Assembly: GCA_902524845.1 (NCBI GenBank) | Contig: CABZEW010000002.1 | Location: 1,160 to 65,159 of the forward strand | Reading direction: 5' to 3' | From: an uncultured Alphaproteobacteria bacterium | GTDB taxonomy: Bacteria > Pseudomonadota > Alphaproteobacteria > Rhodobacterales > Rhodobacteraceae | Length of the DNA stretch: 64,000 bases | In this document: one piece after another, positions 2,328-34,895 of the stretch | How positions within the stretch are numbered: position 1 is the first letter of the stretch | Layout: the number at the start of each line of letters is the position of its first letter | Program-made: the position numbers and the translations under genes | Notes under the pieces: generated by a model | What the model was told of the DNA's origin: nothing | The model's input: only the letters and a program-made list of their open reading frames with translations | Database searches by the model: none

Positions 2328-4331
2328 TTACGTTCTTGTTATAACGGCATCTATATTATCTTTTTTTTCTTTAAGGTCTGGTGGCATGGCTTCCATTGCA
2401 AGCTCTCTTATAGCAGAATCTAATGAAATGGTTTGAGAATCTTTTCGACCAAGTCGCCGTAGGTTAACAGACCGGTCTTGAATTTCTTTCTCGCCTACGA
2501 CCGCAATTATAGGGATCTTTGAAAGAGAATGCTCTCGCACTTTATAATTAATTTTTTCATTTCTGTTATCTGCTTTGCACCTTAATCCTACATCTTTAAA
2601 AGATCTGATAACTTCGGCAAGGTATTTATCCATATTAGTTGTTATTGACGCAACTACAATCTGTGTTGGTGCAAGCCAGAGAGGAAGTCTGCCAGTTGTA
2701 TTCTCAAGTAATATACCAATGAATCTTTCAAAAGATCCTAGTATCGCTCTATGTAGCATTACAGGTGTATGCTTTTCTCCCATATCGGTTATGTAGCTCG
2801 ATCCTAGTCTTTCAGGTAAAACAAAGTCAACTTGTAAGGTGCCACACTGCCAATCTCTGCCCAAAGCATCTGTTAATACAAATTCTAACTTTGGGCCATA
2901 GAAAGCTCCCTCACCTTTATTGATCAAATAATCGTATCCTGCGGTTTTGGTTGCACTTTTTAGGGCTTGTTCGGCACGGTCCCAAACGTGATCGCTTCCG
3001 GCTCTATTCAATGGCCTATCAGAAAATTTAATCTTAAATTCTGCAAAACCCAGTTCTTTGTAAATCACAGATAAAAGGTCAATGAATTTTTTTGTCTCGC
3101 TTTCTATTTGCTGTTCGGTACAGAAAATGTGGGCATCATCTTGTAAGAAAGCTCTTACTCTCATTAGACCATGCAGTGCACCTGATGGTTCATTTCTATG
3201 GCAAGCACCAAATTCAGCCATTCGTAAAGGCAGGTCTCTGTACGATTTTATACCTTGATTATAAATCTGAACGTGGCAAGGACAGTTCATTGGCTTAAGA
3301 GCATTTATTCTAGGTGCTTTTTCTTGTTCATCTACCTCAACAATGAACATATTTTCTCTAAATTTATCCCAGTGGCCTGATTTTTCCCAAAGTCGTTTAT
3401 CCACCATCTGAGGTGTTTTTACTTCTAAGTAACCATTGTTTTCAAGTTTTCTACTCATATATCCCTGTAAAGTAGAGTATAGCTTCCACCCGTTTGGATG
3501 CCAAAAAATACTTCCAGTAGCCTCTTCTTGTAGATGGAATAAATCCATTTCCCTTCCTAGTTTTCTGTGATCTCGTTTTTCTGCTTCTTCCAGTCTAAAA
3601 AAATATTGTCTTAGTTCAGCTCTGCTCCTAAACGCTACTCCATATATTCGCTGTAACATTTTATTTTTGCTATCACCTTTCCAGTACGCACCCGCAACTC
3701 TCGTAAGCTTAAAAGCATCTGCAGGAACCTGGCCGGTGTTAGTTAAATGTGGACCTCTACAGAGATCTTGCCAATCACCATGCCAGTACATCTTAATATC
3801 ATGATTGGTCGGAATATCTTGAATAAGCTCAACTTTGTAGTGCTCATTTCTTTCTTTGTAAAACTCCAGAGCTCTATTACGATCCCATATTTCGCTTTTT
3901 ACAAGATCTTTCTTTGCGATTATCGATCGCATCAGCTTTTCAATTTTTTCTATATCATTCTCAGAAAAAGGCTCTTCTTTATCGAAATCATAAAAGAAGC
4001 CATCTTGAATAACCGGGCCTATAGTAACCTTTACATTTGGCCATATCTCTTGAACTGCTCTAGCCAAAATATGTGCACAGTCATGCCTAATTAATTCCAA
4101 TGCTATCTCGGTATCTTCAGTAGTGTGTATTATAAGAGAGCAATCTTCTGTCAATTTAGTTGATAGGTCTGTTAAGTCACCGTTTAAAGAGCATGCTACA
4201 GACTTTTTTGCGAGAGAAGTCGATATTTCTTCTGCTATCTCTAAGCCAGTGATACCAGATGGATACGTTTTTAAAGAACCGTCTGGTAGTTCAACAGCGA
4301 TTTTTTTTTCTTCAGGAAGATTTAAACTCAC
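2328..4331 (-). CDS. thrS: threonine--tRNA ligase
   Basis: 667 aa with a TGS-like N-terminus, editing domain, class II core ([22 protein letters not shown]) and anticodon-binding C-terminus. Conserved thrS-infC order. Confidence 0.95.
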
Positions 4332-4342
4332 GCTATACTTCT

Positions 4343-5494
4343 TTAACTTGCTTTTCTAAAAGATAAAGTACTGTATGCATTAATTAATATCTCTTCTATG
4401 TTTTTAACATCGAAGTTATTTAATACATAATTACGGTTTATTCGTCCAGTAAAAACCCTCTCTGGTGCTTTAATTTGCAGTAGGTGCGTCAAAATTCTCT
4501 CTAAACTCGTTGTTTCACCATTTCCAGAAAGATAACTATGATATTCTTTAGGTACAAGCTCTTTATTTACATCGTTCTCCCAACTAACTACCGCATTACC
4601 CATAGCCAAAGCGTTTAGTATGTCTAGTGAATAGTAATCGGTTTGAGGATTTAAGTCTAAGTATATCGAGGATAATTTTAAGCATGCCTCGAAGTCAGTT
4701 AAAGGATCCATAAGACATAAAACACTAGTTCTGTTTTTGAAGTATTTTTCCTCGAATTCAATGAGTTGTTTCTTATTCGCACGATTTTTCAAAACTATGA
4801 GGTAAGGTTTAATATTTTCTGGGAGTTTCTCTAGGATAACAGAGAGTTTAATTATCTGGTTTTGCCATTTTTTTGAATCAAAATACGCTCGAGTGAAAAC
4901 TATATGCCGAGGTTTCTCAAGCATCCCCCACTTGGTAGCTAAGGAGATAGTTCTTTCTTGACTAATCTTGTTCTCATCAAATATCGTGAAGTCCACCGGT
5001 ACTGGGACATGAACCAGGTCAATATTTTTTCTCGAATATTTGGTTAAAAGTTCTTTGTATGCTGTTTTGCTGGGCACTAAGGTTGTAACTTGAGGTAGAG
5101 ACTCTCCAAATATGGTCGTATTCAATCTGTTCATTATACTTTGCTCTGATGTGTTTTTCAGTAAAGACATTATTATTTTTATTGAACAGCTTTTCTGAAC
5201 CTGTAAAGCGGCTTTATAGCCTGCTGTATCATACACATGTATTATCGTTATAGATTTTGAGGACACAACTTCACAAATTTCCTTGACGGCAGATTTAGAA
5301 TAAACAATATCTATTGACGACGAGCGTTGGCTGACAATTTCTGCACCCCATCTTTTGAAATATGACAATTCTCTACCTAGGGGAGCGAAAACATATGCGT
5401 TACAGTTATTATCTTTTAAGACTTTAGAGTGAGCTGCGACTGCTCTTATTGAAATATCTGCATCAAAGCTGCTTAGAAGTTGAAGAATGTTCAT
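4343..5494 (-). CDS. glycosyltransferase (GT-B fold, GT4-like), putative
   Basis: The long ORF is 4343..5584. The likely start is MNILQLLSS at 5494, which removes the overlap with the divergent gene. The C-terminal half has a GT1/GT4-like layout, but the assignment is weak. Confidence 0.45.
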
Positions 5495-6629: not shown

Positions 6630-6705
6630 GCCTCTATAGCTCAGTTGGTAGAGCAACTGATTTGTAATCAGTGGGTCGGGAGTTCGAGTCTCTCTGGGGG
6701 CACCA
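6630..6705 (+). tRNA. tRNA-Thr (anticodon UGU)
   Basis: 76 nt, GCCTCTATAGCTCAGTTGGTAGAGCAACTGATTTGTAATCAGTGGGTCGGGAGTTCGAGTCTCTCTGGGGGCACCA. The cloverleaf was folded by hand: acceptor GCCTCTA/TGGGGGC, anticodon stem ACTGA/TCAGT with loop TTTGTAA, T-arm GGGAG/CTCTC, encoded CCA. Confidence 0.9.
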
Positions 6706-6784
6706 TCCAGTTACAGTGTTAGCTTTATTTGCTTGGCTTTGATGAAACTTAGTCAAGGAGGGTAGACCAAATGGTAGACCAAAA
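6706..6784 (+). promoter_or_regulatory. attL-side arm (P' arm) with tandem 12-mers overlapping the int start
   Basis: TCCAGTTACAGTGTTAGCTTTATTTGCTTGGCTTTGATGAAACTTAGTCAAGGAG, then GGTAGACCAAAT (6761-6772) and GGTAGACCAAAA (6773-6784). The int ATG (6771-6773) straddles the two 12-mers and the SD AAGGAGG is at 6755-6761. Confidence 0.55.
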
Positions 6785-7886
6785 TGGAGCATATTTATTC
6801 AGAAAACGTGGTATCTACTACTTTTCAAAGCGCATACCATCAGATCTAAAACATTTGTATCGAGTAGAGAGACTAATACATTCTCTTAGAACTAAATGTG
6901 ATAGGAAAGCCAAGTCACAAGCATTAGCTATGTTGCTTAAGCTTGACGATCATTGGTCAAAAGCAAGACTGCACAATGATGTGCTTCACAGAAAATCTCT
7001 CAATCACAACAAAGCCATAAAATTCACGGAAAGTGTTTCAGAGTATCTTTCTGCAAATGGATCTAACCGAAGTATAACTTTTGAAAAAGCTGTGCAGAGA
7101 GCATCCAGATACCTTGTAGAGTCTGTTGGAGATAAAGACCTCAAAAGTTACACACGTGCTAATGCAAATTCTTTTAGAGACTATTTAATTGATAAAGGGT
7201 TGGCAGGTAGCTCAATTACTAGAATACTTACCACAATTAAAGCGATACTTAATTTCGCTAAACGTGAACATAGTTTAAATATGAACAATCATTTTGTTGG
7301 GTTGAACTATGATAGAAGCAAGAGAGTAGGGGGCAGACTACCTATTCCTATGAAGCACCTTCAAGCAATACAGAAGCGATGTGTAGAAATAGATGATGAG
7401 CTAAGATGGCTTGTTGCCCTAGTATCAGATACTGGGATGAGATTAGCAGAAGCTACAGGTCTTTTGGTGGAGGATATAAACTTAGATGCAGATATTCCTT
7501 TTGTCTCTTTAAAAAGTTATCCTTGGAGACCTTTGAAGACGGAGGGAAGCACAAGAGATATCCCTTTGGTTGGACAAGCTTTGTGGTCTGCAAAACGAAT
7601 AAAAACCATGTCACAAAGTAGGTTCGCCTTTCCTAGGTATAATACCATGTCTATTACGAGCTCTAATACAGCTAGTGCTACACTCAACAAGTGGTTAAAA
7701 AGCGAAAGTAATTATAATTATACGATGCATTGTTTTAGACACTCATTACGAGATAGATTGAGAAATATTAACTGTCCCTCAGACGTAGCTGATCAGATTG
7801 GTGGCTGGTCTAATAAAACGGTAGGGCAGGAATATGGTAGTGGCTATGCTTTGAGGAATTTGGAATGGTGGATGAGTTTAATTTAA
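6771..7886 (+). CDS. tyrosine-type site-specific integrase
   Basis: 371 aa. The N-terminal YYFSKRIPSDL-type arm is common in tRNA-island integrases. The catalytic signature is present: R in DTGMRLAEATGL, H-x-x-R in HCFRHSLRDRL, and W/Y in GGWSNKTVGQEYGSGY. Sits directly 3' of the tRNA. Confidence 0.9.
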   Translation: MVDQNGAYLFRKRGIYYFSKRIPSDLKHLYRVERLIHSLRTKCDRKAKSQALAMLLKLDDHWSKARLHNDVLHRKSLNHNKAIKFTESVSEYLSANGSNRSITFEKAVQRASRYLVESVGDKDLKSYTRANANSFRDYLIDKGLAGSSITRILTTIKAILNFAKREHSLNMNNHFVGLNYDRSKRVGGRLPIPMKHLQAIQKRCVEIDDELRWLVALVSDTGMRLAEATGLLVEDINLDADIPFVSLKSYPWRPLKTEGSTRDIPLVGQALWSAKRIKTMSQSRFAFPRYNTMSITSSNTASATLNKWLKSESNYNYTMHCFRHSLRDRLRNINCPSDVADQIGGWSNKTVGQEYGSGYALRNLEWWMSLI

Positions 7887-11081: not shown

Positions 11082-12365
11082 CTAAAGCTGTAATTTGTGA
11101 ATACCGATCTTTTCTGTTCTACCTGGAATACTAAAATTTGCCTCGAAATCAGACTTGATTTCTTCAGATAATCGTTTGGCCACGGCATCGCTAATAATTA
11201 CTTGGCTATCAAATTTTTTACACGCATCACATAAACGATTAGCTACATTCACTGTATCTCCTAAAACGGTGAATTCAACTCTCTGATCTCCGCCAATGTT
11301 CCCAATTATGCATGGGCCAAAATGAATGCCAATTCTGTGCGTTATTTGAGGTAGTTTCTTTTCTGCGCGTTCTTTTGACCACTGGTTCATAGAAATTTGC
11401 ATTTTTCTCGCGCATTCAAATGCATTTTGAGCGTCATTGCCTCTACTAGTAGGTGTCCCAAACGTAGCCATAACTGCATCGCCTATAAATTTGTCAACAG
11501 TACCACCTGAACTAAATATCGCAGCAACCATTTTGGACTGGTACTCAGAAACCAATCGAACTACATCTTTGGGATCCATCGTTTCGGTCATCTTCGTAAA
11601 GCCATTTATATCTGTAAACAAAACTCCTACTAAAGAAGATTTTTCTACTTCAGTAATGTCAGAAAAACGGCTATTCTCTATTTCATCTTTAACCTCAGGA
11701 GAAAAATATCTACCTAATACCTGGTTTGCCCTCTCAAAATTCGAAGCTTGATTTGTTACTTTATCGAACTGCCAGCTAGTTACCGTAACCACTATAACCG
11801 TGAATACAACAAATAAACAATTCAAAACAAACCAGTCCAAATTTATAGCGAGTCCGTCTGAGAAAACAACTGGCAGGTTGCTAGAAAAAAATACACCATC
11901 AATGCTTAAAGCCATATATTGCTGGATAACAATGCTAGTTACAAATAATGCCGACAGGAATGCAGAAATAGTCAATCTGAGATATAGAACAGATACCACA
12001 ATAAACATAATACCAGGCGCGAATTGATAATCAACAATCCTTCCAACATTAGACTCAACGAGTAATGGATCATTATCAAGATTCGTAAGTATAGCGACAC
12101 CAATATTTGTTAAAATTATTAATAAAAGGCTCAAGAAAAGTAAAGGGCGATAATTTTCGATTCTAGTGTTCAACGCTATTGCTGCATTTAGTAGCGAACT
12201 AGTAAGAAACAAAGTAGGAAACCCAAACTTACCTAAGTCAGTGCTTGCGGTAGGTATTAGGAGTTGTGAAAATACTACCATCATCTGAATCATAGCATAG
12301 ACCCAGCTCACCATCTTCAACCCAGAGACATATCTTGAAATTAATTGATCGTTATTCATCATCAA
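11082..12365 (-). CDS. membrane-anchored class III adenylate/guanylate cyclase
   Basis: 427 aa with about 6 TM helices followed by a cyclase homology domain (VLFTDINGFTKMTE, DKFIGDAVMATFG, EFTVLGDTVNVANRL). Paralog of 33600..34895. Confidence 0.85.
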   Translation of the reverse strand: MMMNNDQLISRYVSGLKMVSWVYAMIQMMVVFSQLLIPTASTDLGKFGFPTLFLTSSLLNAAIALNTRIENYRPLLFLSLLLIILTNIGVAILTNLDNDPLLVESNVGRIVDYQFAPGIMFIVVSVLYLRLTISAFLSALFVTSIVIQQYMALSIDGVFFSSNLPVVFSDGLAINLDWFVLNCLFVVFTVIVVTVTSWQFDKVTNQASNFERANQVLGRYFSPEVKDEIENSRFSDITEVEKSSLVGVLFTDINGFTKMTETMDPKDVVRLVSEYQSKMVAAIFSSGGTVDKFIGDAVMATFGTPTSRGNDAQNAFECARKMQISMNQWSKERAEKKLPQITHRIGIHFGPCIIGNIGGDQRVEFTVLGDTVNVANRLCDACKKFDSQVIISDAVAKRLSEEIKSDFEANFSIPGRTEKIGIHKLQL

Positions 12366-12462: not shown

Positions 12463-12686
12463 GTTGTAAACTCCCCATCTGTTGCACACTCCAAGAAAAT
12501 ACTACGTGTACACCCCTAGTGGTCTGGCATGGGGGTAGACCAAACGGTAGACCAAAATTGTTTAATTGATGCGTAAATCTATGTTAAACTTTCAGATAAG
12601 TAGCCAAGAAAAGCTAATTATAGTTGGTAGAGCAACTGATTTGTAATCAGTGGGTCGGGAGTTCGAGTCTCTTTGGGGGGGCACCA
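12463..12686 (+). repeat. CBR2, full-length 'type 1' repeat with pseudo-tRNA-Thr
   Basis: GTTGTAAACTCCCCATCTGTTGCACACTCCAAGAAAATACTACGTG... The 12-mers are GGTAGACCAAAC at 12534-12545 and GGTAGACCAAAA at 12546-12557. A spacer is followed by the tRNA segment at 12623-12686, which is identical to the gene over GAGCAACTGATTTGTAATCAGTGGGTCGGGAGTTCGAGTCTCT and has a 5-nt D-loop deletion and a non-pairing 5' acceptor. Confidence 0.85.
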
Positions 12687-13374: not shown

Positions 13375-15228
13375 CTATTGATTTAAATAGCCAATTTCAT
13401 CTAAGTAAGGCTTGATAAGAGGATAAACTTTCCCATCTTTCCAATTCTGTAACCTCGAGATTTTTAATCCCGCCTTATTAGCTCTTGCTAATAACTTTTT
13501 AGCCTCTTCTAAATTACCAACTTCAGCCTCTAAAGCCGCATAAAGAATTAGAAGAAGCGAAGTTTTGTTAGAGAACTCATCGTTTAAAACATCCTTTAAT
13601 AGTGTCTTTATTTCATCCTTTCGATCAAGCATATAAAGCTGAGGGGCCAACTGCATTTTTACCATATGCTGTACATCATTTGGCATCAATCGAAGAGCTT
13701 CATAGCGGTAACCGACTGCTTTTTCAGCCAATCCACACATTTCTAAAATATTTGCCCCGACATTCAAAACAGTCGGATTAGCACTATTGATAGATAGCGC
13801 TTTATTAATGTGGCCCATCGCTATATCGCAATCCTTTGACAAAAAGATAAATTCTACATTCGCTCTCATCATGTACGCATCGTCATTTCCTTTAGTATTT
13901 ATGATATTTTGAGAAATATAATCTAGACGTGCGATATCCTCTTCTCGTTTCTGAGATAGACCTAAACGCAACCTCTGATATATCGTCCAACCTTCGATAT
14001 ATTCCATAACATATTGGTTACTGGATATTTTTTTTAAACTTTCAAATAGTTCTAAATGTTTATTATATCCTTCAGGCGTCCATCTTCTCCATTCATTTCT
14101 GTGATTTAGAAAAAGCGTATATGCTTCAGCAGTATCGAATTCATTCAACCATTTTTTTGCATTTTGGCCTTCAACCATATTTACTTGAAGTTCAACAAGT
14201 AAATTTGTCCCTAAATCATCTTGAACCTTAAAAATATCTTTTTGCTGAAAATCTAGCAAATCTGACCATGATATTGTTCTCTTCTCGAAGTCATAAAGCT
14301 CTACAGTTAACCTACTTTGTTCACCAAAAGCTTGCACAGAACCCTTTATCAAATAATTTACACCAAAATTCTTACCGATCTCATCATCACTTATGTCCTG
14401 CTCTAATATATTAAAACTAGTACTTGAGGACAAAACGTTGATGCCGTTATATTTTGATAAAATAGATATTACACCTTCTGTAAGAGCTGTTCCAACCGAA
14501 CTATTATCTGAACCCAATGTCTGGAATGGCTTAACCAATATAGTGGGCAGAGAGTTTTTGTTTTTCTGTACTTTTAGTTCCTGGTCCGTATCTTCTTTAA
14601 ATATGCTGAATGTTGAAAAGACCAAAAAGCCAATTACTAAAAGAGCTGCAATTGCTCCAACGGACACAAACCTCAAGCTTTTTTTATTTTTAAGTGTTCT
14701 CTTTTGCGACGGATCAAGAAGTATATCAAACGCATGGAATTCGTTCTGTTTAACCTTTTGTACCCCAAGATCATTAAAAGTCATCTTAGTTTTTGGCACA
14801 ACAAAGTCGTATACACTTTTTGATATTGATATCCCGTTCGGTTGAGCAAGAGCTTCTAGCCTGGCGGCGATATTTACACCGTCTCCTATAAGATTGGAAT
14901 CTTTTCTTACGACATCTCCCATATTTATACCAAGACGAAACTCCAGCTTTACAACTGCTTTTTGAGAGTCGTGTCTTTTCTTTATTTGTTTTTGGAACTC
15001 AACTCCACACTCAACAGCATTAACAGCACTAGGAAACTCAGCCAGGACCGAATCTCCAGCAGTGTTAAACACAGATCCCTTATATTTTTTGAGGAGTGTT
15101 TGTAAGATCTTTTCACAAGAATTGTAGCTATTGATTGTGGCATTTTCATCTTTTTCCATATGCTTGGAATAGCCAACTACGTCGGCAACAAATATAACAG
15201 CGATTTTACGATCAAAATTGCTAGACAT
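13375..15228 (-). CDS. class III adenylate cyclase with TM segment and C-terminal TPR-like domain
   Basis: Start moved to MSSNFDRKIAVIFVADVVGYSKHM at 15228, because the track's 56-aa N-terminal extension runs through CBR3. The cyclase domain (FNTAGDSVLAEF, NLIGDGVNIAARLE) is followed by one TM helix and TPR-like repeats. Confidence 0.85.
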   Translation of the reverse strand: MSSNFDRKIAVIFVADVVGYSKHMEKDENATINSYNSCEKILQTLLKKYKGSVFNTAGDSVLAEFPSAVNAVECGVEFQKQIKKRHDSQKAVVKLEFRLGINMGDVVRKDSNLIGDGVNIAARLEALAQPNGISISKSVYDFVVPKTKMTFNDLGVQKVKQNEFHAFDILLDPSQKRTLKNKKSLRFVSVGAIAALLVIGFLVFSTFSIFKEDTDQELKVQKNKNSLPTILVKPFQTLGSDNSSVGTALTEGVISILSKYNGINVLSSSTSFNILEQDISDDEIGKNFGVNYLIKGSVQAFGEQSRLTVELYDFEKRTISWSDLLDFQQKDIFKVQDDLGTNLLVELQVNMVEGQNAKKWLNEFDTAEAYTLFLNHRNEWRRWTPEGYNKHLELFESLKKISSNQYVMEYIEGWTIYQRLRLGLSQKREEDIARLDYISQNIINTKGNDDAYMMRANVEFIFLSKDCDIAMGHINKALSINSANPTVLNVGANILEMCGLAEKAVGYRYEALRLMPNDVQHMVKMQLAPQLYMLDRKDEIKTLLKDVLNDEFSNKTSLLLILYAALEAEVGNLEEAKKLLARANKAGLKISRLQNWKDGKVYPLIKPYLDEIGYLNQ

Positions 15229-15284
15229 ATTGAACCATAGGGACACAAAAATTAATTTACAAGATTGACGTAACTGGAGTTCTT

Positions 15285-15400
15285 TTCTGCTGTGCTTGAC
15301 TGCAGCGTACTCCAAGAAAATTCTGACTGTACGTCCCCAGTAGTCCTGCATAGGGGTAGACAAAACTCTAAACAAATATATGCGTTGGGAGACCACCCAG
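15285..15400 (+). repeat. CBR3 (decayed left module with degenerate 12-mers)
   Basis: TTCTGCTGTGCTTGACTGCAGCGTACTCCAAGAAAATTCTGACTGTACGTCCCCAGTAGTCCTGCATAGGGGTAGACAAAACTCTAAACAAATATATGCGT. Confidence 0.55.
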
Positions 15401-15454
15401 AGTGGGCGAGATTAGTTCATCCTACTTGTTTATTTCTAGCAATATTCCATAAAT

Positions 15455-15483
15455 TTGACAATTTAGAGTTTTTTGTAGATAAT
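15455..15483 (+). promoter_or_regulatory. sigma70-type promoter of module B copy 1
   Basis: TTGACA (15455-15460), 17-bp spacer, GATAAT (15478-15483). The same geometry is conserved in copy 2. Confidence 0.6.
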
Positions 15484-15489
15484 ATCGCG

Positions 15490-15593
15490 GGAACAAGTCT
15501 GTGAGAATGTTGTACCAGTTGGGGAGGAAAATTCCACAGAAACACTATTTCTATACATTATTCTGAAAATTAAACAGGCTGTTCCTTTTTTTT
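15490..15593 (+). ncRNA. candidate ~105-nt structured RNA (sRNA or leader) of module B copy 1
   Basis: Predicted +1 is about 7 nt after the -10. 5' GGAACAAGTCTGT (15490-15502) can pair with ACAGGCTGTTCC (15574-15585), directly followed by T8 (15586-15593). An alternative hairpin, CTGTGAGAAT/ATTCCACAG, presents a CCAGTTGGGGAGGAAA loop. Confidence 0.45.
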
Positions 15594-15623
15594 AAAAAAA
15601 AAGGGCCACACTTTGTATGGCCC
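15594..15623 (-). terminator. intrinsic terminator-like hairpin reading on the minus strand
   Basis: GGGCCA...TGGCCC hairpin (15603-15623) preceded by A9 on the + strand, which is hairpin plus U9 on the minus strand. Conserved in copy 2. Confidence 0.4.
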
Positions 15624-16119
15624 AGTGGGGAGGAAATGTCCGATTAGGACAATAGTTTGATGTTAAACTAAATATCTTAGACTGCAAGAATAACGTGACG
15701 TTAACGTAAACTTAACGTTGAGTAATTCTTAATAAAGTTACCTTCGATCTGGCAACACTTTAGTTTGCAATTAAATTACCTTACAAGTTTAAAAGGATGC
15801 TCAGGTATCTGAAGTTATTGTGTAAATGTTTCGGTCAATTATTTGCTAATTTTGACCGCTTGATTGAAACAATTCTTAAAATTGTAGCTTAATAAAATTA
15901 TAACTCGTCGTAATGAGGGTTTACTTGGTTTTATAACAAGAGCGAAAACGAATTTGTAATTAATGATTCACTAAAAAATTTATTACTGCATCAGTTTGTA
16001 TTTTTAAAAAAGGCATAGTGAACGCAAGGTCTCAGTTTTATTATTTTGGAATTGAGATAATGGCATAAACAAAAAGGATCAGATTAAATATTTCCAGAGT
16101 TTCAATTCTGATGTCGTTT

Positions 16120-18042
16120 CTAATCAGACAGTCCTAGCGGCTTAAGTACATTGCCAATGTCAGCCAAAAACTTCTTATTCTGGAATGCAGGATAGTCAGA
16201 AAACGGGGAGTTTGCAGTATATTTCCTCCCAATACCATTACTCATTTCTAATGTTTGAGCAGCAAGTTTGTTTTGTTTTTTCTTTTCATAAGAGTACGCC
16301 AATAGGGCCGAGATCGTTGGCAATGCCATAACATCATTATGGTATCTCTTGGATTTCTCTGACATCCAAAGGCTCTCGAGTTTTCCGGAGTCCACACCAT
16401 ATTGAAAAGTGAGATAGGCATATCCATAAGCAAGATATTTCGCGTTAAAAGCGCTAGGTCTTAATTCAAGTGATCTTTCCATATGAAGCAAGCCTTGCTC
16501 AAATTGATCTTGTGAGCTCCCATTCGAAGAACAGACTTGGTACAATAATCCAAAGTCGAATTGGCTCAGATGATCGTCGTAAATCCTATTTTCATATTGT
16601 TTGAGATCTGGAATAATAGAACAAGCCAAATCAAACTTCTGTAAGATTGCCTGATAAATACTCTTTCCCGCAAATAAATATAAATATATTGAATCAGCTT
16701 GATCAACAAATTGAATGCCGTGAGATAGATAATTTATGGCCTTGTTGATTTCCAAGGTAGGATCATCAACAAGTCCCAAGCTAGTACTAGCAAATGTATG
16801 AAAAGCTGCCAGTTGTAAAACGTGAGGATCATTTGGTGCAGAAGCTAGGTTCCTTTGTAATAGTTGACCTGCATAAGTCACACTCTCGACTGTTGATTTT
16901 AGAATAGCCTTATCAATCTTGATAAGATCAAAGTAAGTTTTGGGGTCATTCGTGTATTTGAACACGTGCTGCTTAGATGAAATATATCTCGATAATCCCT
17001 TCATAAGAAACATTGCAAGTTGTTCTTTTACCACGATCATGTTTTCTTCTATTCGGAAATCATACTGCTCTCTGAAAATTGTTTCAGAGGATACTGCTTC
17101 AACAACTCTGTATTGAACTCTTATAAATTCCTCTGAGTTTTGTACTGTGCCCGTGACCACATAGCGGATATCATTATTTGCCGCCAATTCTTTGTAAGGC
17201 AGTTTTTCTTCGATGAGCAATTGAGCTTCGATAGAGTCAATAAATTTCATATCAGTATTAAGATCTGATAAAGTATTGTTGATACTAACAGAGAGGTTAG
17301 CTTGTTCACTGCCAAAGTTTTTTTCAGAACTTTGGCTTTCAAATGGAAGAATAAGTATTTTCGGTCTTATATCGGAAATATCTGTAGCTGAATTTATTTC
17401 TTCATTATTAAAGAAAATAGAGAAGTATGTAATTGCGGCAGAGGATATTAAAATTAATACTGCCAGTCCAAACATACTCAGCTTTTTCAATCCGGATTGG
17501 GGTCTCAATTTTCGTTTTTGTTTAGGATCAAGTATGACATCATAGACGTGAAATTGGTTGCTTTTTACTTTCTGTATACCCTGGTCAGCAAAAGAGAGCT
17601 TTGTCTTGGAAGATACATATTCAAAAATGCCCTTTGAAATTGATATCCCACTTGCTTGAGCCAAAGACTCTAGACGGGCGGCTATGTTGACTCCGTCACC
17701 TAAAAGGTTTCCTTTTTCCTTTATTACATCCCCAACGTTAATCCCGATGCGAAACTCTAACTTAACTGTTGCACCTGCAGTTTTATTTCTTCTTTTAATT
17801 GCATTTTGAAATTCAACGGCGCACTCAACCGCGGCAACGGCACTTTCAAACTCTCCAAAAAATGAGTCTCCCCCAGTATTAAAAAGTCTAGCTTTATATT
17901 TCTCGAAAAGGTCCTTTAGCAAACTTTCGCACGCTCGAAGGTTTTTTATAGTAGCATTTTCATCGCTTTCAATGTGCTTACTGTATCCAACTACATCAGT
18001 CGCAAAAATTACAGCAATCTTCCGCTCTATGGCAGTGTTCAC
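16120..18042 (-). CDS. class III adenylate cyclase with TM segment and C-terminal helical-repeat domain
   Basis: 640 aa. N-terminal cyclase domain (IAVIFATDVVGYSKHIE, FNTGGDSFFGEF, NLLGDGVNIAARLE) and one TM helix. Same architecture as 13375..15228. Confidence 0.85.
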   Translation of the reverse strand: MNTAIERKIAVIFATDVVGYSKHIESDENATIKNLRACESLLKDLFEKYKARLFNTGGDSFFGEFESAVAAVECAVEFQNAIKRRNKTAGATVKLEFRIGINVGDVIKEKGNLLGDGVNIAARLESLAQASGISISKGIFEYVSSKTKLSFADQGIQKVKSNQFHVYDVILDPKQKRKLRPQSGLKKLSMFGLAVLILISSAAITYFSIFFNNEEINSATDISDIRPKILILPFESQSSEKNFGSEQANLSVSINNTLSDLNTDMKFIDSIEAQLLIEEKLPYKELAANNDIRYVVTGTVQNSEEFIRVQYRVVEAVSSETIFREQYDFRIEENMIVVKEQLAMFLMKGLSRYISSKQHVFKYTNDPKTYFDLIKIDKAILKSTVESVTYAGQLLQRNLASAPNDPHVLQLAAFHTFASTSLGLVDDPTLEINKAINYLSHGIQFVDQADSIYLYLFAGKSIYQAILQKFDLACSIIPDLKQYENRIYDDHLSQFDFGLLYQVCSSNGSSQDQFEQGLLHMERSLELRPSAFNAKYLAYGYAYLTFQYGVDSGKLESLWMSEKSKRYHNDVMALPTISALLAYSYEKKKQNKLAAQTLEMSNGIGRKYTANSPFSDYPAFQNKKFLADIGNVLKPLGLSD

Positions 18043-32105: not shown

Positions 32106-32363
32106 AAAATTATTATCTTATAAAATAATTGATAGTGATAGAGAACGTACCCAGTGGACGGAACAGTGATCTTTCGAGTAAGTCTGTTAACGCATAAACA
32201 ATTAGATTTGATTGACTTGTAATTTGTATTCTAGCGCACATACACTTATTCCAATTACGAATTTAAAATTTGTTGTAGTTGCTCTATGTGAATGCCAGTA
32301 GTCTAATAGGAGTAGGTGAGATCAGACCAGGTTATTATTTTTTTTTAAGTATTTTTCAACAAT

Positions 32364-32392
32364 TTGACATTTTCAATTTTTTTGTTGATACT
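32364..32392 (+). promoter_or_regulatory. sigma70-type promoter of module B copy 2
   Basis: TTGACA (32364-32369), 17-bp spacer, GATACT (32387-32392). Confidence 0.6.
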
Positions 32393-32398
32393 ATGCCC

Positions 32399-32503
32399 GG
32401 GGACTAGTCTGTGAGAATGTTGTACCAGTTGGGGGAGGAAAATTCCACAGGAACTCGATTTCAACAGATTATTTTGAAATTTAAAACAGACAGTTCCCTT
32501 TTT
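32399..32503 (+). ncRNA. candidate ~105-nt structured RNA of module B copy 2
   Basis: GGGGACTAGTCTGT (32399-32412) can pair with ACAGACAGTTCCC (32486-32498), followed by T5 (32499-32503). Same internal hairpin and CCAGTTGGGGGAGGAAA loop as copy 1. Confidence 0.45.
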
Positions 32504-32532
32504 AAAAAAAAGGGCCACTTTTGGTGTGGCCC
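32504..32532 (-). terminator. minus-strand intrinsic terminator-like hairpin (copy 2)
   Basis: A8 followed by GGGCCAC TTTTGGT GTGGCCC (32512-32532). Confidence 0.4.
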
Positions 32533-33004
32533 AGTTGGAGGAGGAAATGTCCGATAGGACAGTAGTTTGATGTTAAACTAAACGCACCAATTTGCAAGAA
32601 TAACGTTACGTTAACGTAAACTACAAGCAGACTTACTAAAATAAAGTAATCCACAAATTGATCGACGATTTAGTTTTCAATTAAACTACCTTACTAAGTT
32701 TAAGAAAATACTTTTGGTTTTGAGATTTACGTGCAGATGTCTCGCTCGATTATTTGCTAAGGTTTAATGCGTAATAAAAATAAATCTCAAATTGTAGCTT
32801 TATAAAGTGAATACTTGCTGTAATTAAGCGCTTGAACGTTCTCACAACAAAAAACAAGAAATGTGAAATAAAGTTGATCAACTTAGAATTTACACAAAGT
32901 TGAATTTATATTTGATGAATTTAAAGCGAGTTGACGTTAGGTTTCAGTTTTCTTTTTTAAATCAGTTCATATGATGAACTTAAGTTACGAGAAAGGATAT
33001 TAAG

Positions 33005-33493
33005 ATGGCATTGCATTGCCCAGGATGGATACTTTGTATTTTTTGTGCAAATGCGGCTAGGGAAACCCTATTTTATTCTGCACCACTCAATGTTATTACA
33101 AAAAAGTATACAGATGAAATCGCAGTTCATTACAAAGAGATCTCTGCAGAATTTTTACAAATTTGCAGCGAGAAAATTTTGGGTTCGTTAGTTGAAGTTG
33201 AAGCAGGAGAGAGTGCTGAGGAAGTCATAAGAGGATATTTGTATCAAAAGATTAAATTCAAAGATGATGGGTCTGTAAGAAAACTGGTGGGCCTATTTTC
33301 ATCAGAGTTTAGTGGTGAAAGATCTCAATCTGGAACGGAAAAATATATTGTCACAAATTTTAGAGCTTTTTTATTTTCATTAAGGTCTGGAAAAAAAGTT
33401 GGCTGTCCTCCAGGTTGGCAGGTTGATCAAGTACCTGATCTTAAATGGGTGCAAGAGGTAATGATGAAAAAAGTATCGATAATGGATGTTTAA
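33005..33493 (+). CDS. hypothetical protein (162 aa)
   Basis: ORF with a weak SD (AAAGGA). No recognisable motif. Confidence 0.45.
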   Translation: MALHCPGWILCIFCANAARETLFYSAPLNVITKKYTDEIAVHYKEISAEFLQICSEKILGSLVEVEAGESAEEVIRGYLYQKIKFKDDGSVRKLVGLFSSEFSGERSQSGTEKYIVTNFRAFLFSLRSGKKVGCPPGWQVDQVPDLKWVQEVMMKKVSIMDV

Positions 33494-33599: not shown

Positions 33600-34895
33600 G
33601 TGAAGACAGAAAGAGATCATAAAAGAGATAGGCATGTCACTGGACTAAAGCTGTCCTCTGCCGTGTTTTTGGGAAACAGTGTCATAGGGATAATTAATTT
33701 TTTCTATTTTCAGACTTTTAATTTACCTTTTTCTAACCAAATCGCCTTAGCAAACTTAATAATTGGTATGGCAATTGCGGGGTCAATTTTCTATTTTGCA
33801 AACAGAGAAAATTATAATTTGCTCCTAGCTATTTCTGTTTTAAAAGTGATAACTTCGTTTGTCATATTTCGCCAAATTATCCCATACGATTTTGTTAATA
33901 GCGTAGAAAATCCAGGAGACTGGATAGGTAGAAGCATGGACTTCCAATTTTTGGTGCCACTAAGTTTTCTGCTTTTTTCGTTAACTTATTTACGATTTTC
34001 TGTAGTCCTTTTTTTGTTACTTTTTATTACAATTTACTTTTTTGGATATGAAATTTATGGGTATTTTAAAATGTTTCCGGACGCATATTTGTCAGACGAC
34101 ATGGCAAAGGTGTACTCTGATAGTAATGCGATTTATAGAGTTTTTTTTATTGCAAATGTAGGGAACTTTGTTGTTTATGGCACCATTGTACTCTTTGTAA
34201 GCTTCCTAATCGAAAGACTGACGGGAAATGTTGCGAGGTTTGAGAAAACTAACGCTCAATTGGGAAGATATTTCTCGCCCCAAATCAAGGAGGAAATAGA
34301 AACTTCCGAGCTAGATAATATAGGTAAAAATGCTAAGGATCTTTTTGTCGCAATTCTCTTTACTGATATAGTAGGCTTCACCAAATTGTCAGAAAAAATG
34401 GATCCTAAAGATGTATTATCTCTTTTATCAGATTATCAAGCGATTATGGTAGATTGTATATTTGCTCACAGAGGTACTGTCGATAAATTCATCGGGGACG
34501 CCGTAATGGCAAATTTCGGTACACCGAAATCCGCTGGCAATGATGCACAAAATGCATTTAATTGTGCATTGGAGATGAATTTGAAGCTACAAAAATTCAA
34601 CAAATTTAGAAAGAAAAAAGGGCTAAAAGAGATTAAGCACAGAATAGGAATTCATTATGGACCCTGTGTCGTTGGGAACATAGGTAGTGAACTCAGGACA
34701 GAGTTTGCGGTTATCGGAGACTCAGTAAACGTAGCAAGTAGAATATGTGACGCATGTAAGGAGTTTGATACGAACTTAATAATAAGTAAAATTGTTGCCG
34801 ATAAAATAAATATGAATGGTAGTTTTGTACAAATTAAGGACTACAAAATAAGAGGCCGCAGAGAAGTAATTGATTTGGTGAAAATTTCTAATTAA
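33600..34895 (+). CDS. membrane-anchored class III adenylate/guanylate cyclase
   Basis: 431 aa, GTG start, ~6 TM helices plus a cyclase domain (ILFTDIVGFTKLSE, DKFIGDAVMANFG, EFAVIGDSVNVASRI). Paralog of 11082..12365, sharing the linker LGRYFSPxxKxEIExS. Confidence 0.85.
   Translation: MKTERDHKRDRHVTGLKLSSAVFLGNSVIGIINFFYFQTFNLPFSNQIALANLIIGMAIAGSIFYFANRENYNLLLAISVLKVITSFVIFRQIIPYDFVNSVENPGDWIGRSMDFQFLVPLSFLLFSLTYLRFSVVLFLLLFITIYFFGYEIYGYFKMFPDAYLSDDMAKVYSDSNAIYRVFFIANVGNFVVYGTIVLFVSFLIERLTGNVARFEKTNAQLGRYFSPQIKEEIETSELDNIGKNAKDLFVAILFTDIVGFTKLSEKMDPKDVLSLLSDYQAIMVDCIFAHRGTVDKFIGDAVMANFGTPKSAGNDAQNAFNCALEMNLKLQKFNKFRKKKGLKEIKHRIGIHYGPCVVGNIGSELRTEFAVIGDSVNVASRICDACKEFDTNLIISKIVADKINMNGSFVQIKDYKIRGRREVIDLVKISN

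Follow-up and report, generated by a model that had tools for sequence, protein, structure and literature searches.

What is encoded by a noncoding module that occurs twice in one mobile cassette array, each time with its own promoter? The array belongs to an uncultured alphaproteobacterium of the Rhodobacteraceae (contig CABZEW010000002.1, positions 1,160 to 65,159), and all coordinates below refer to this stretch of 64,000 nucleotides, the window, which has a G+C content of approximately 36%. The initial annotation described each copy as a unit of about 600 bp and proposed that it gives rise to one large, structured RNA from the plus strand, a candidate novel noncoding RNA. According to our analyses, the core of the module appears to consist instead of two convergent predicted small-RNA genes with terminators placed tail to tail, an organisation deduced from sequence. 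The minus-strand gene is predicted to encode a small RNA (sRNA) resembling the αR8 family, here called sRNA-2, and the plus-strand gene a second RNA, sRNA-1, that could pair with it.

Extent and distribution of the module

The two copies, A (15380-16050) and B (32290-32965), are colinear duplicates, as had been noted before: in a blastn search within the window, positions 15380-15740 matched 32310-32622 with 79.9% identity over 318 nt (E 4.7e-72). The description of the region as noncoding cargo of a mobile cassette array was likewise borne out. The ATG-initiated frame is broken by a GGGG/GGGGG indel, copies A and B share no open reading frame (ORF) of at least 20 amino acids, the reported difference in the length of a hairpin loop (GATTA vs GATA) is present, and indels of 1 and 2 nt occur in the most conserved segments of the module. 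A conserved small toxic peptide, as in type I toxin-antitoxin systems, was not found among the copies, which have no ORF in common. Look-ups of exact protein sequences for the integrase of the island and three spurious ORFs overlapping the module gave zero matches.

Homologues were retrieved by two scans for exact 20-nt sequences, one block from each half of the core. In species-representative genomes, all five matches were true homologues (L001-L005), and all of them came from genomes titled as uncultured marine Alphaproteobacteria single-cell genomes. Among 16 metagenome matches to the 20-nt sRNA-2 pattern, five were true homologues (L009, L013, L014, L016, L020). The other 11 were dismissed as chance matches, being without an Rfam match and similar to the module over approximately 25 nt only; two of them, L010 and L011, resemble coding sequence. 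Two scans of viral contigs with module patterns yielded zero matches. Together, 12 copies are at hand, two in the window and ten elsewhere in marine alphaproteobacterial single-cell genomes and metagenomes; they are closely related and represent about seven distinct sequences. They fall into subtype I (copy A, L002, L004, L005, L020), subtype II (copy B, L013) and subtype III (L001, L003, L009, L014, L016), and the window is 88% identical to L005 over the module.

Across nine non-redundant copies, conservation extends from about 15380 to about 15718, a core of approximately 340 bp, and then collapses. The extension at 15740-16050 on the plus strand aligns solely among copy A, copy B and L013, whereas its conservation in the other copies is 0.35-0.57. 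In copy B and L013, the extension runs into the start of an ORF of 162 amino acids (ATGGCATTGCATTG..., 33005-33493 in copy B), and a deletion has removed this ORF together with its start codon from copy A. What had been taken for the outer half of a 600-bp module is therefore leader sequence of a cassette gene, of which copy A retains an intergenic remnant outside the family-wide module. In copy B, this leader occupies 32640-33004 on the plus strand and precedes the 162-residue ORF, which has no Pfam match, and then a membrane adenylate cyclase gene (33600-34895). Thus, the duplication over some 600 bp stands for the two copies in the window, but family-wide conservation is confined to 15380-15718.

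A predicted αR8-like sRNA on the minus strand

RF00519 (suhB/MmgR) was the sole non-tRNA family of Rfam that matched anywhere in the window with E <0.05, and it matched both copies on the minus strand (15588-15657, 35.4 bits, E 0.0014 for the whole window; 32497-32567, 35.1 bits). In eight further loci comprising 43.6 kb, it was again the sole family with E <0.1 and was detected in 8/8 copies on the equivalent strand with 31.4-38.9 bits. The alignments span the full length of the family, including the hairpin, UUUCCUCCC, ACU, the GGGCC stem and the U8 or U-tract.

In copy A, the Rfam match, a terminator scan, folding and Alifold place the predicted sRNA-2 at 15594-15653 on the minus strand (approximately 60 nt). 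A weak hairpin of 4-5 bp (15651-15637; UGUCC-loop-GGACA) is followed by the single-stranded sequence AUUUCCUCCCCACU, the terminator hairpin (15623-15603) and U9. In copy B, the predicted αR8-like RNA at 32504-32563 on the minus strand is supported by the RF00519 match, by the terminator scan and by 96 bits with our model R1; it has the seed UUUCCUCCUCCAACUGG, the terminator hairpin at 32532-32512 and then U8. Both window copies thus possess a canonical intrinsic terminator on the minus strand, composed of a GGGCC... stem (7-9 bp) and U8-9. The stem recurs in 10/10 aligned copies, and no copy has lost the U-tract. The sRNA-2 folds have z scores of -4.7 and -3.7 in the window copies. The seed of copy A (UUUCCUCCCCACUGG, 15622-15636, minus strand), which is the reverse complement of the second of two motif copies pointed out in the initial annotation, is unpaired in the minimum-free-energy and consensus folds and costs only 0.1-0.3 kcal/mol to open.

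The helices of sRNA-2 are canonical in 110/110 alignment cells on the minus strand in the Alifold consensus, compared to 102/110 on the plus strand, and a U.G pair in the terminator stem, present in 8/10 copies, works on the minus strand alone. Such asymmetry between the strands was found in both units of the module, because G.U pairs and alternations of U.G with U-A or of G.U with A-U become mismatches on the opposite strand.

Upstream of sRNA-2, a predicted promoter, P2, occupies 15660-15687 on the minus strand, with TTGCAG (15687-15682), a 16-bp spacer and TAACAT (15665-15660). All 12 copies have TTGC-N2, a spacer of exactly 16 bp and a -10 element TANNNT with invariant T1, A2 and T6 (TAACAT, TAACGT, TAGAAT, TAATGT or TAACTT), while the first 9-10 nt of the spacer vary freely, a pattern of conservation that fits a working promoter. 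An operator-like ACGT repeat or palindrome (TAACGTGACGTTAACGTAAAC, 15691-15712) is nearly invariant across all copies and is centred approximately 49.5 bp upstream of the predicted start of sRNA-2. In copy B, where P2 and the palindrome together span 32570-32621 on the minus strand (TAACAT at 32575-32570, TTGCAA at 32597-32592), it reads as the perfect palindrome TTACGTTAACGTAA at 32606-32619. Within the window and the loci scanned, the palindrome is confined to the module. Located at about -50, it probably serves to control the transcription of sRNA-2. An inverted repeat of the form TAGTTT-N5/6-AAACTA is found twice in the same region (15654-15671 and 15759-15778; in copy B 32564-32581 and approximately 32668-32688). 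One of the repeats overlaps the predicted -10 region and start site of sRNA-2, and the other, which subtype III lacks, is situated upstream of it at a distance of about 105 bp; they may act as a pair of operators.

Two features define the αR8 family: the sequence UUUCCUCCCU, which lies single-stranded on the 3' side of a weak hairpin, and a Rho-independent terminator. Apart from the Rickettsiales, the family is found across the whole of the Alphaproteobacteria, usually with one copy beside the gene for N-formylglutamate amidohydrolase (FGase), and additional paralogues and lateral transfer have been described (Vogt et al., 2025; PMC12559287). sRNA-2 has the terminator, the single-stranded 10-mer after a weak hairpin and an alphaproteobacterial host; the 10-mer is matched at 9/10 positions by UUUCCUCCCC in subtypes I and III and at 8/10 by UUUCCUCCUC in subtype II. 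Its score lies below the 41-bit threshold of the Rfam family and there is no FGase gene among the annotated neighbours of the module, although such synteny is expected of the primary αR8 copy only. Since threshold and synteny are missed while the architecture is present, we refer to sRNA-2 as αR8-like and not as a curated member. All copies with flanks sufficient to judge sit in cassette arrays bounded by att-like repeats, and sRNA-2 is probably a divergent, laterally mobile paralogue.

In architecture, in size (approximately 60-75 nt) and in its alphaproteobacterial host, the predicted RNA is similar to established αR8 RNAs, such as MmgR of Sinorhizobium meliloti, SuhB of Sphingopyxis and SisA-D of Caulobacter. 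It differs from them by its residence on a mobile cassette within a tRNA-Thr island, where 17 kb separate its two copies, by a seed with a lineage-specific 3' extension (CACUGG or CUAACUGG), and by the physical coupling of its gene to the gene of a complementary RNA.

A predicted RNA of another kind on the plus strand

The near-consensus promoters with 17-bp spacers described previously were recovered by our promoter scan. P1, the predicted sRNA-1 promoter, lies on the plus strand at 15455-15483 in copy A (TTGACA, 17 bp, GATAAT) and at 32364-32392 in copy B (TTGACA, 17 bp, GATACT). TTGACA and the length of the spacer are invariant in 11/11 copies, and the -10 element reads GATAAT, GATACT, AATACT or GATAAC. 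The predicted transcript comprises approximately 104 nt (15490-15593 in copy A; 32399-32503 in copy B, supported by the fold and by 129 bits with our model R2). From a predicted start near 15490, the initial 14 nt (GGGAACAAGUCUGU) form a duplex with ACAGGCUGUUCC, located immediately 5' of the U-tract at 15586-15593, so that a stem between the 5' and 3' ends precedes U8; the internal sequence is CCAGUUGGGGAGGAAAA. The predicted 3' ends of the two RNAs abut, with T8 at 15586-15593 directly followed by A9 at 15594-15602. Model R2 detects all 11 full copies. The helices of sRNA-1 are canonical in 225/230 cells on the plus strand, compared to 187/230 on the minus strand, and alternations between U.G and U-A in its closing stem are tolerated on the plus strand alone. 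A local hairpin that had been proposed before (CUGUGAGAAU/AUUCCACAG) fits the variation among the copies as well but was set aside in favour of the long-range closing stem, which is more stable by about 8 kcal/mol.

On the plus strand, Rfam returned no match to the module with E <0.03, and all matches were well below the gathering scores of their families; over sRNA-1, there was nothing with E <1 or at any gathering score. A weak match to IMES-4 at 15586-15647 (20 bits, gathering score 48) was rejected, as it depends on GGGAGGAAAUG alone. As the plus strand is matched by no Rfam family, the RNA that P1 very likely produces is so far unclassified. The proposal of a novel noncoding RNA is thereby retained for the plus strand, but with a predicted length of approximately 104 nt, ending in a stem and U-tract. 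The Rfam search that had been recommended came out negative for this strand and gave the sub-threshold RF00519 similarity for the other.

These data bear directly on the original proposal of one structured plus-strand RNA of 230-600 nt, in which two Shine-Dalgarno (SD)-like GGGGAGGAAA motifs bind ribosomes or a CsrA-type protein. A strong and invariant promoter on the plus strand and the position of both motifs on one DNA strand would agree with such an RNA, and the degenerate plus-strand U-tract of subtype III makes read-through plausible. However, the A8-9 tract, the GGGCC hairpin and the U.G pair form a canonical terminator on the minus strand only, promoter-like conservation lies upstream of that unit on the same strand, and RF00519 was found there in every copy tested. 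The second motif thus belongs to an opposite-strand gene with its own promoter, its own terminator and likeness to a known family. Rather than one strand with a conserved, structured RNA exceeding 400 nt, the module has a core of some 340 bp that is divided into two units on opposite strands and ends near 15718, before the ORF leader begins. Neither GOLLD nor ROOL nor any other large RNA was matched in Rfam at gathering or E-value thresholds. CsrB/RsmZ-type sponges contain many GGA motifs in hairpin loops, whereas by inspection sRNA-1 has only 2-3, far fewer than RNAs of this type, and the complementarity between the two RNAs, described in the next section, explains the repeated motif better than binding of ribosomes or of CsrA-type proteins. 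We regard a single long RNA as improbable.

Complementarity of sRNA-1 to the sRNA-2 seed

The motif CCAGT(T)GGGGAGGAAA was correctly reported to occur twice per copy, and both occurrences are on the same DNA strand. Since the two genes are convergent, this repetition means that sRNA-1 carries the complement of the sRNA-2 seed. Motif 1 (CCAGTTGGGGAGGAAA, 15515-15530, plus strand) is the predicted site in sRNA-1 for pairing with the seed. The duplex comprises 15 bp with one bulge in subtype I and 17 contiguous bp including one G.U pair in subtypes II and III; the computed energy of the hybrid is -25 to -31 kcal/mol, or -12 to -19 kcal/mol net. Three substitutions distinguish motif 2 among the copies, and all of them are G-to-A changes on the plus strand, each resulting in a G.U pair in the duplex. 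Moreover, indels in the two motifs are correlated across the subtypes. The similarity between the motif regions spans about 27 nt (CCAGT(T)GGGGAGGAAA..TCC) and points to an origin of the sRNA-1 site from part of the sRNA-2 gene, by inverted duplication. By inspection, CCAGUU(G)GGGGAGGAAA in sRNA-1 is also complementary to 13/16 positions of the Rfam consensus UUUcCUCCCUAgACUU. Thus, sRNA-1 is complementary to most of the αR8 consensus (UUUcCUCCCUAgACU) and could also act on canonical αR8 sRNAs of the host.

A precedent is provided by CrfA of Caulobacter crescentus, which sponges SisA-D in an Hfq-dependent manner by base pairing between its own G/A-rich stem-loop and their αR8 10-mer (Vogt et al., Nat Commun 2025, PMC12559287). 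By analogy to the αR8 family, sRNA-2 with its exposed anti-SD seed (UUUCCUCCCC) would repress mRNAs by pairing at ribosome-binding sites. sRNA-1, transcribed from a near-consensus sigma-70 promoter, would bind this seed through its G/A-rich CCAGUU(G)GGGGAGGAAA and probably also the seeds of other αR8 sRNAs of the host. The bound sRNAs might then be titrated or destabilised, as SisA-D are by CrfA. In such a mobile riboregulatory cassette, an αR8-like anti-SD sRNA under a regulated promoter would be accompanied by a strongly promoted antagonist that masks its seed, a model that we put midway between doubt and acceptance.

CrfA and sRNA-1 have in common a G/A-rich sequence complementary to the αR8 10-mer, with seed masking as predicted mechanism, and CrfA is an independently transcribed small RNA, as sRNA-1 is predicted to be. 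In contrast to CrfA, sRNA-1 would form a longer duplex (15-17 bp), and its gene lies next to that of its sRNA, in convergent orientation, within a mobile cassette; crfA and the sis genes, by contrast, are scattered over the chromosome. As no Rfam family matches sRNA-1, we propose it as a functional analogue of CrfA, likened to it by complementarity, and not as a demonstrable homologue. What is most likely new is the combination of an αR8-like sRNA with a linked, co-mobile, CrfA-like partner, while sRNA-2 itself appears to be of a known kind.

Other antagonistic RNA pairs share single features with the module. SdsR and RyeA of E. coli are likewise two RNAs from opposite strands of one locus, of which one antagonizes the other, as is predicted here; they overlap, whereas the genes of the module do not if their terminators work. 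The phage-encoded anti-sRNAs AgvB and AsxR are carried on mobile elements like the module, but they target core sRNAs and not a co-travelling partner, whereas in the module both the sRNA and its presumed antagonist are mobile. In the par/Fst system (RNA I-RNA II), the genes are convergent, complementarity results from a same-strand repeat that is read in opposite directions, and the terminators stand tail to tail. par encodes the Fst peptide, while neither RNA of the module encodes a peptide.

Several observations weigh against two interacting sRNAs, with sRNA-2 of the αR8 type. The RF00519 scores of all ten copies tested stay below the gathering cut-off (E 1e-4 to 1e-2), and the likeness to the family could partly be convergence of a terminator and a CCUCC stretch. 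Covariation is weak, with one base pair showing double changes and 9/500 shuffles reaching the observed score. The putative terminator of sRNA-1 is a long-range stem between the 5' and 3' ends and not a local hairpin. The adjoining U-tract is broken up in subtype III (CCCUCUC, CCCCUUCU), which leaves the 3' end uncertain there; the plus-strand RNA of this subtype may read through and be fully antisense to sRNA-2. The pairing site in sRNA-1 is in part buried in structure and takes about 6-7 kcal/mol to open, and the complementarity could be a by-product of the inverted partial duplication rather than a selected interaction. No convincing duplexes and no target with an extended match were found in the translation-initiation regions of the neighbouring cyclase and ORF genes. 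Finally, the 20-mers used for retrieval were chosen from the two most conserved blocks, which inflates the apparent invariance of the module. However, each block is invariant in the set retrieved by the other, save one mismatch in L013, so that the high conservation is not purely an effect of ascertainment. Gene starts in the window were not enriched in GGGGAGGAAA-like sites.

The same anatomy would also be expected of an RNA-only addiction cassette of the type VIII kind (SdsR/RyeA-like), in which sRNA-2 is harmful when unopposed, the abundant sRNA-1 neutralizes it, and the array is stabilized in the way that toxin-antitoxin cassettes stabilize integrons. The existence of the module as a solitary cassette in mobile arrays, its two copies within 17 kb in the window, the strong promoter of the antagonist next to a weaker one for the other RNA, and the par/Fst-like layout all agree with this explanation. 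On the other hand, toxicity of sRNA-2 would have to be presumed, the αR8 sRNAs of the species studied act as ordinary regulators, the module contains no toxin ORF, and an operator that is conserved upstream of sRNA-2 fits conditional regulation better than constitutive addiction. We consider addiction as the function of the pair unlikely.

A more far-reaching version of the antagonist model, which we hold to be doubtful, would describe the cassette of approximately 440 bp as a mobile two-gene system made of RNA only. It would consist of an anti-SD sRNA and a dedicated anti-sRNA, the sponge arm having arisen by inverted partial duplication, and would either stabilize the tRNA-Thr array in a type VIII-like manner or take over the αR8 regulon of the host. 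If the antagonist model itself were confirmed, the αR8/MmgR family would extend to streamlined, uncultured marine Alphaproteobacteria, and an sRNA and its cognate sponge could be genetically linked and mobilized together. To our knowledge, the known sponges CrfA, QrrX, SroC and 3'ETS-leuZ are all unlinked to their sRNAs. It would also follow that cassette arrays at tRNA genes of ocean bacteria can carry purely regulatory RNA cargo. With two predicted RNAs, two promoters and one operator in approximately 340 bp, the module would be a compact system suited to study the origin and spread of sponge/sRNA pairs.

Cassette context

The module is part of an island anchored at a tRNA-Thr(UGU) gene (6630-6705), which is followed by a gene for a tyrosine integrase (6771-7886; DUF6538 and Phage_integrase) and, up to about 43000, by more than ten cassette-like units. 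The units are bounded by an att-like repeat of approximately 90 nt (CCCCATCTGCTGCACACTCCAAGAA .. hairpin .. GGGGTAGACnAAAnGGTAGAC), and 3' fragments of tRNA-Thr occur in three of them (at 12610, 18246 and 19355). The same repeat bounds the cassettes of the related loci with enough flanking sequence (L001-L005, L009, L014, L016, L020). Arrays of this kind resemble tycheposons or integron-like arrays, and the cargo of the island and of the related loci includes BioY, a 4HBT thioesterase, MAPEG, a NIPSNAP-like protein, MCD and cyclases. That an att-like repeat lies to the left of the module was correctly noted: copy A directly follows the repeat at 15300-15379, and the distance from such a repeat to copy B is about 300-400 bp. 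In L005 and L020, two consecutive att-like repeats, approximately 440 bp apart, enclose nothing but the core, and in L002 and L004, a repeat separates it from the next gene. From this solitary placement and the intervening repeats, we infer that the core is an autonomous unit.

This arrangement is relevant for the possibility that the module is a cis-acting leader or antisense switch of downstream genes, typically of a membrane adenylate cyclase of approximately 430 amino acids. P1 would then drive the operon, sRNA-1 would be an attenuator and sRNA-2 a cis-antisense RNA to the 5' untranslated region. Such a cyclase gene is indeed found downstream and in the same orientation in three settings, namely in copy B (the 162-residue ORF, ORF162, followed by the cyclase AC431), in subtype III (a 4HBT thioesterase followed by AC432, which is 39% identical to AC431) and in L002 and L004 (AC430, 41% identical to AC431), and subtype III is without a good plus-strand U-tract. 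Subtypes I and II, however, have terminators with a stem and U5-8 on the plus strand, and an att-like boundary lies between the module and the next gene in L002, L004, L005 and L020. Elsewhere, the downstream genes differ (a NIPSNAP-like ORF, a convergent ORF of 628 amino acids and the convergent AC640). The flanking cyclases in the window differ in strand and architecture, as had been reported, and both AC431 and ORF162 have close homologues that are not accompanied by the module. Among 15 loci with AC431 homologues, none contains a copy of the module. Homologues of ORF162 (L037-L049; 70-75% identity) belong to a conserved core context, in the order SCO1/SenC - ORF162 - NAD-binding dehydrogenase, and the stretch of about 86-110 bp upstream of them is too short to hold the module; these loci lie outside the covariance-model scan. 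Because of this core context, the ORF162 of the island looks like a captured paralogue. The link of the module to cyclases of approximately 430 amino acids is thus real in three contexts but not general, and we see only a small chance that the module serves as their leader.

Between the att-like repeat and P1, a further conserved element extends from 15380 to 15450 (..GAGTGGGCGAGATTARWTCATCCTAC.. followed by an AT-rich stretch), with an identity to copy A of 0.6-0.75 in the nine non-redundant copies. It could be a regulator site, an UP element or the left end of the cassette; a comparison with the 3' half of tRNA-Thr gave no convincing homology. Together with the position directly after an att-like repeat and the conserved palindromes (TTACGTTAACGTAA and the two TAGTTT-N5/6-AAACTA repeats), this block might speak for an element that acts only as DNA, as a recombination site or a region for the binding of regulators, with incidental RNA-like features. 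Nevertheless, other cassettes of the same arrays are without the module, and an element acting only as DNA would account neither for two promoter/terminator pairs arranged as complete genes nor for strand-specific G.U patterns and a full-length match to an RNA family. We therefore rate this as very improbable.

Four genes for class III adenylate/guanylate cyclases with three architectures lie within 24 kb of the island (11082-12365, 13375-15396, 16120-18042 and 33600-34895). For the ORF of 673 amino acids on the minus strand, the GTG start at 15396, which runs into the conserved upstream block of the module, is probably artefactual. Comparison with the N-terminus of its paralogue (16120-18042) points to a start near 15228 (MSSNFDRKIAV...). 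Membrane cyclases of the AC431 type have hundreds of relatives in marine metagenomes, and some of these adjoin genes for AlpA-type excisionases (L027, L031, L033, L034, L036). In the single-cell genome AG-899-B02 (L005), a second integrase of the P4 type (4084-5334; Arm-DNA-bind_3, Phage_int_M and Phage_integrase) is encoded 3 kb from the solitary module cassette.

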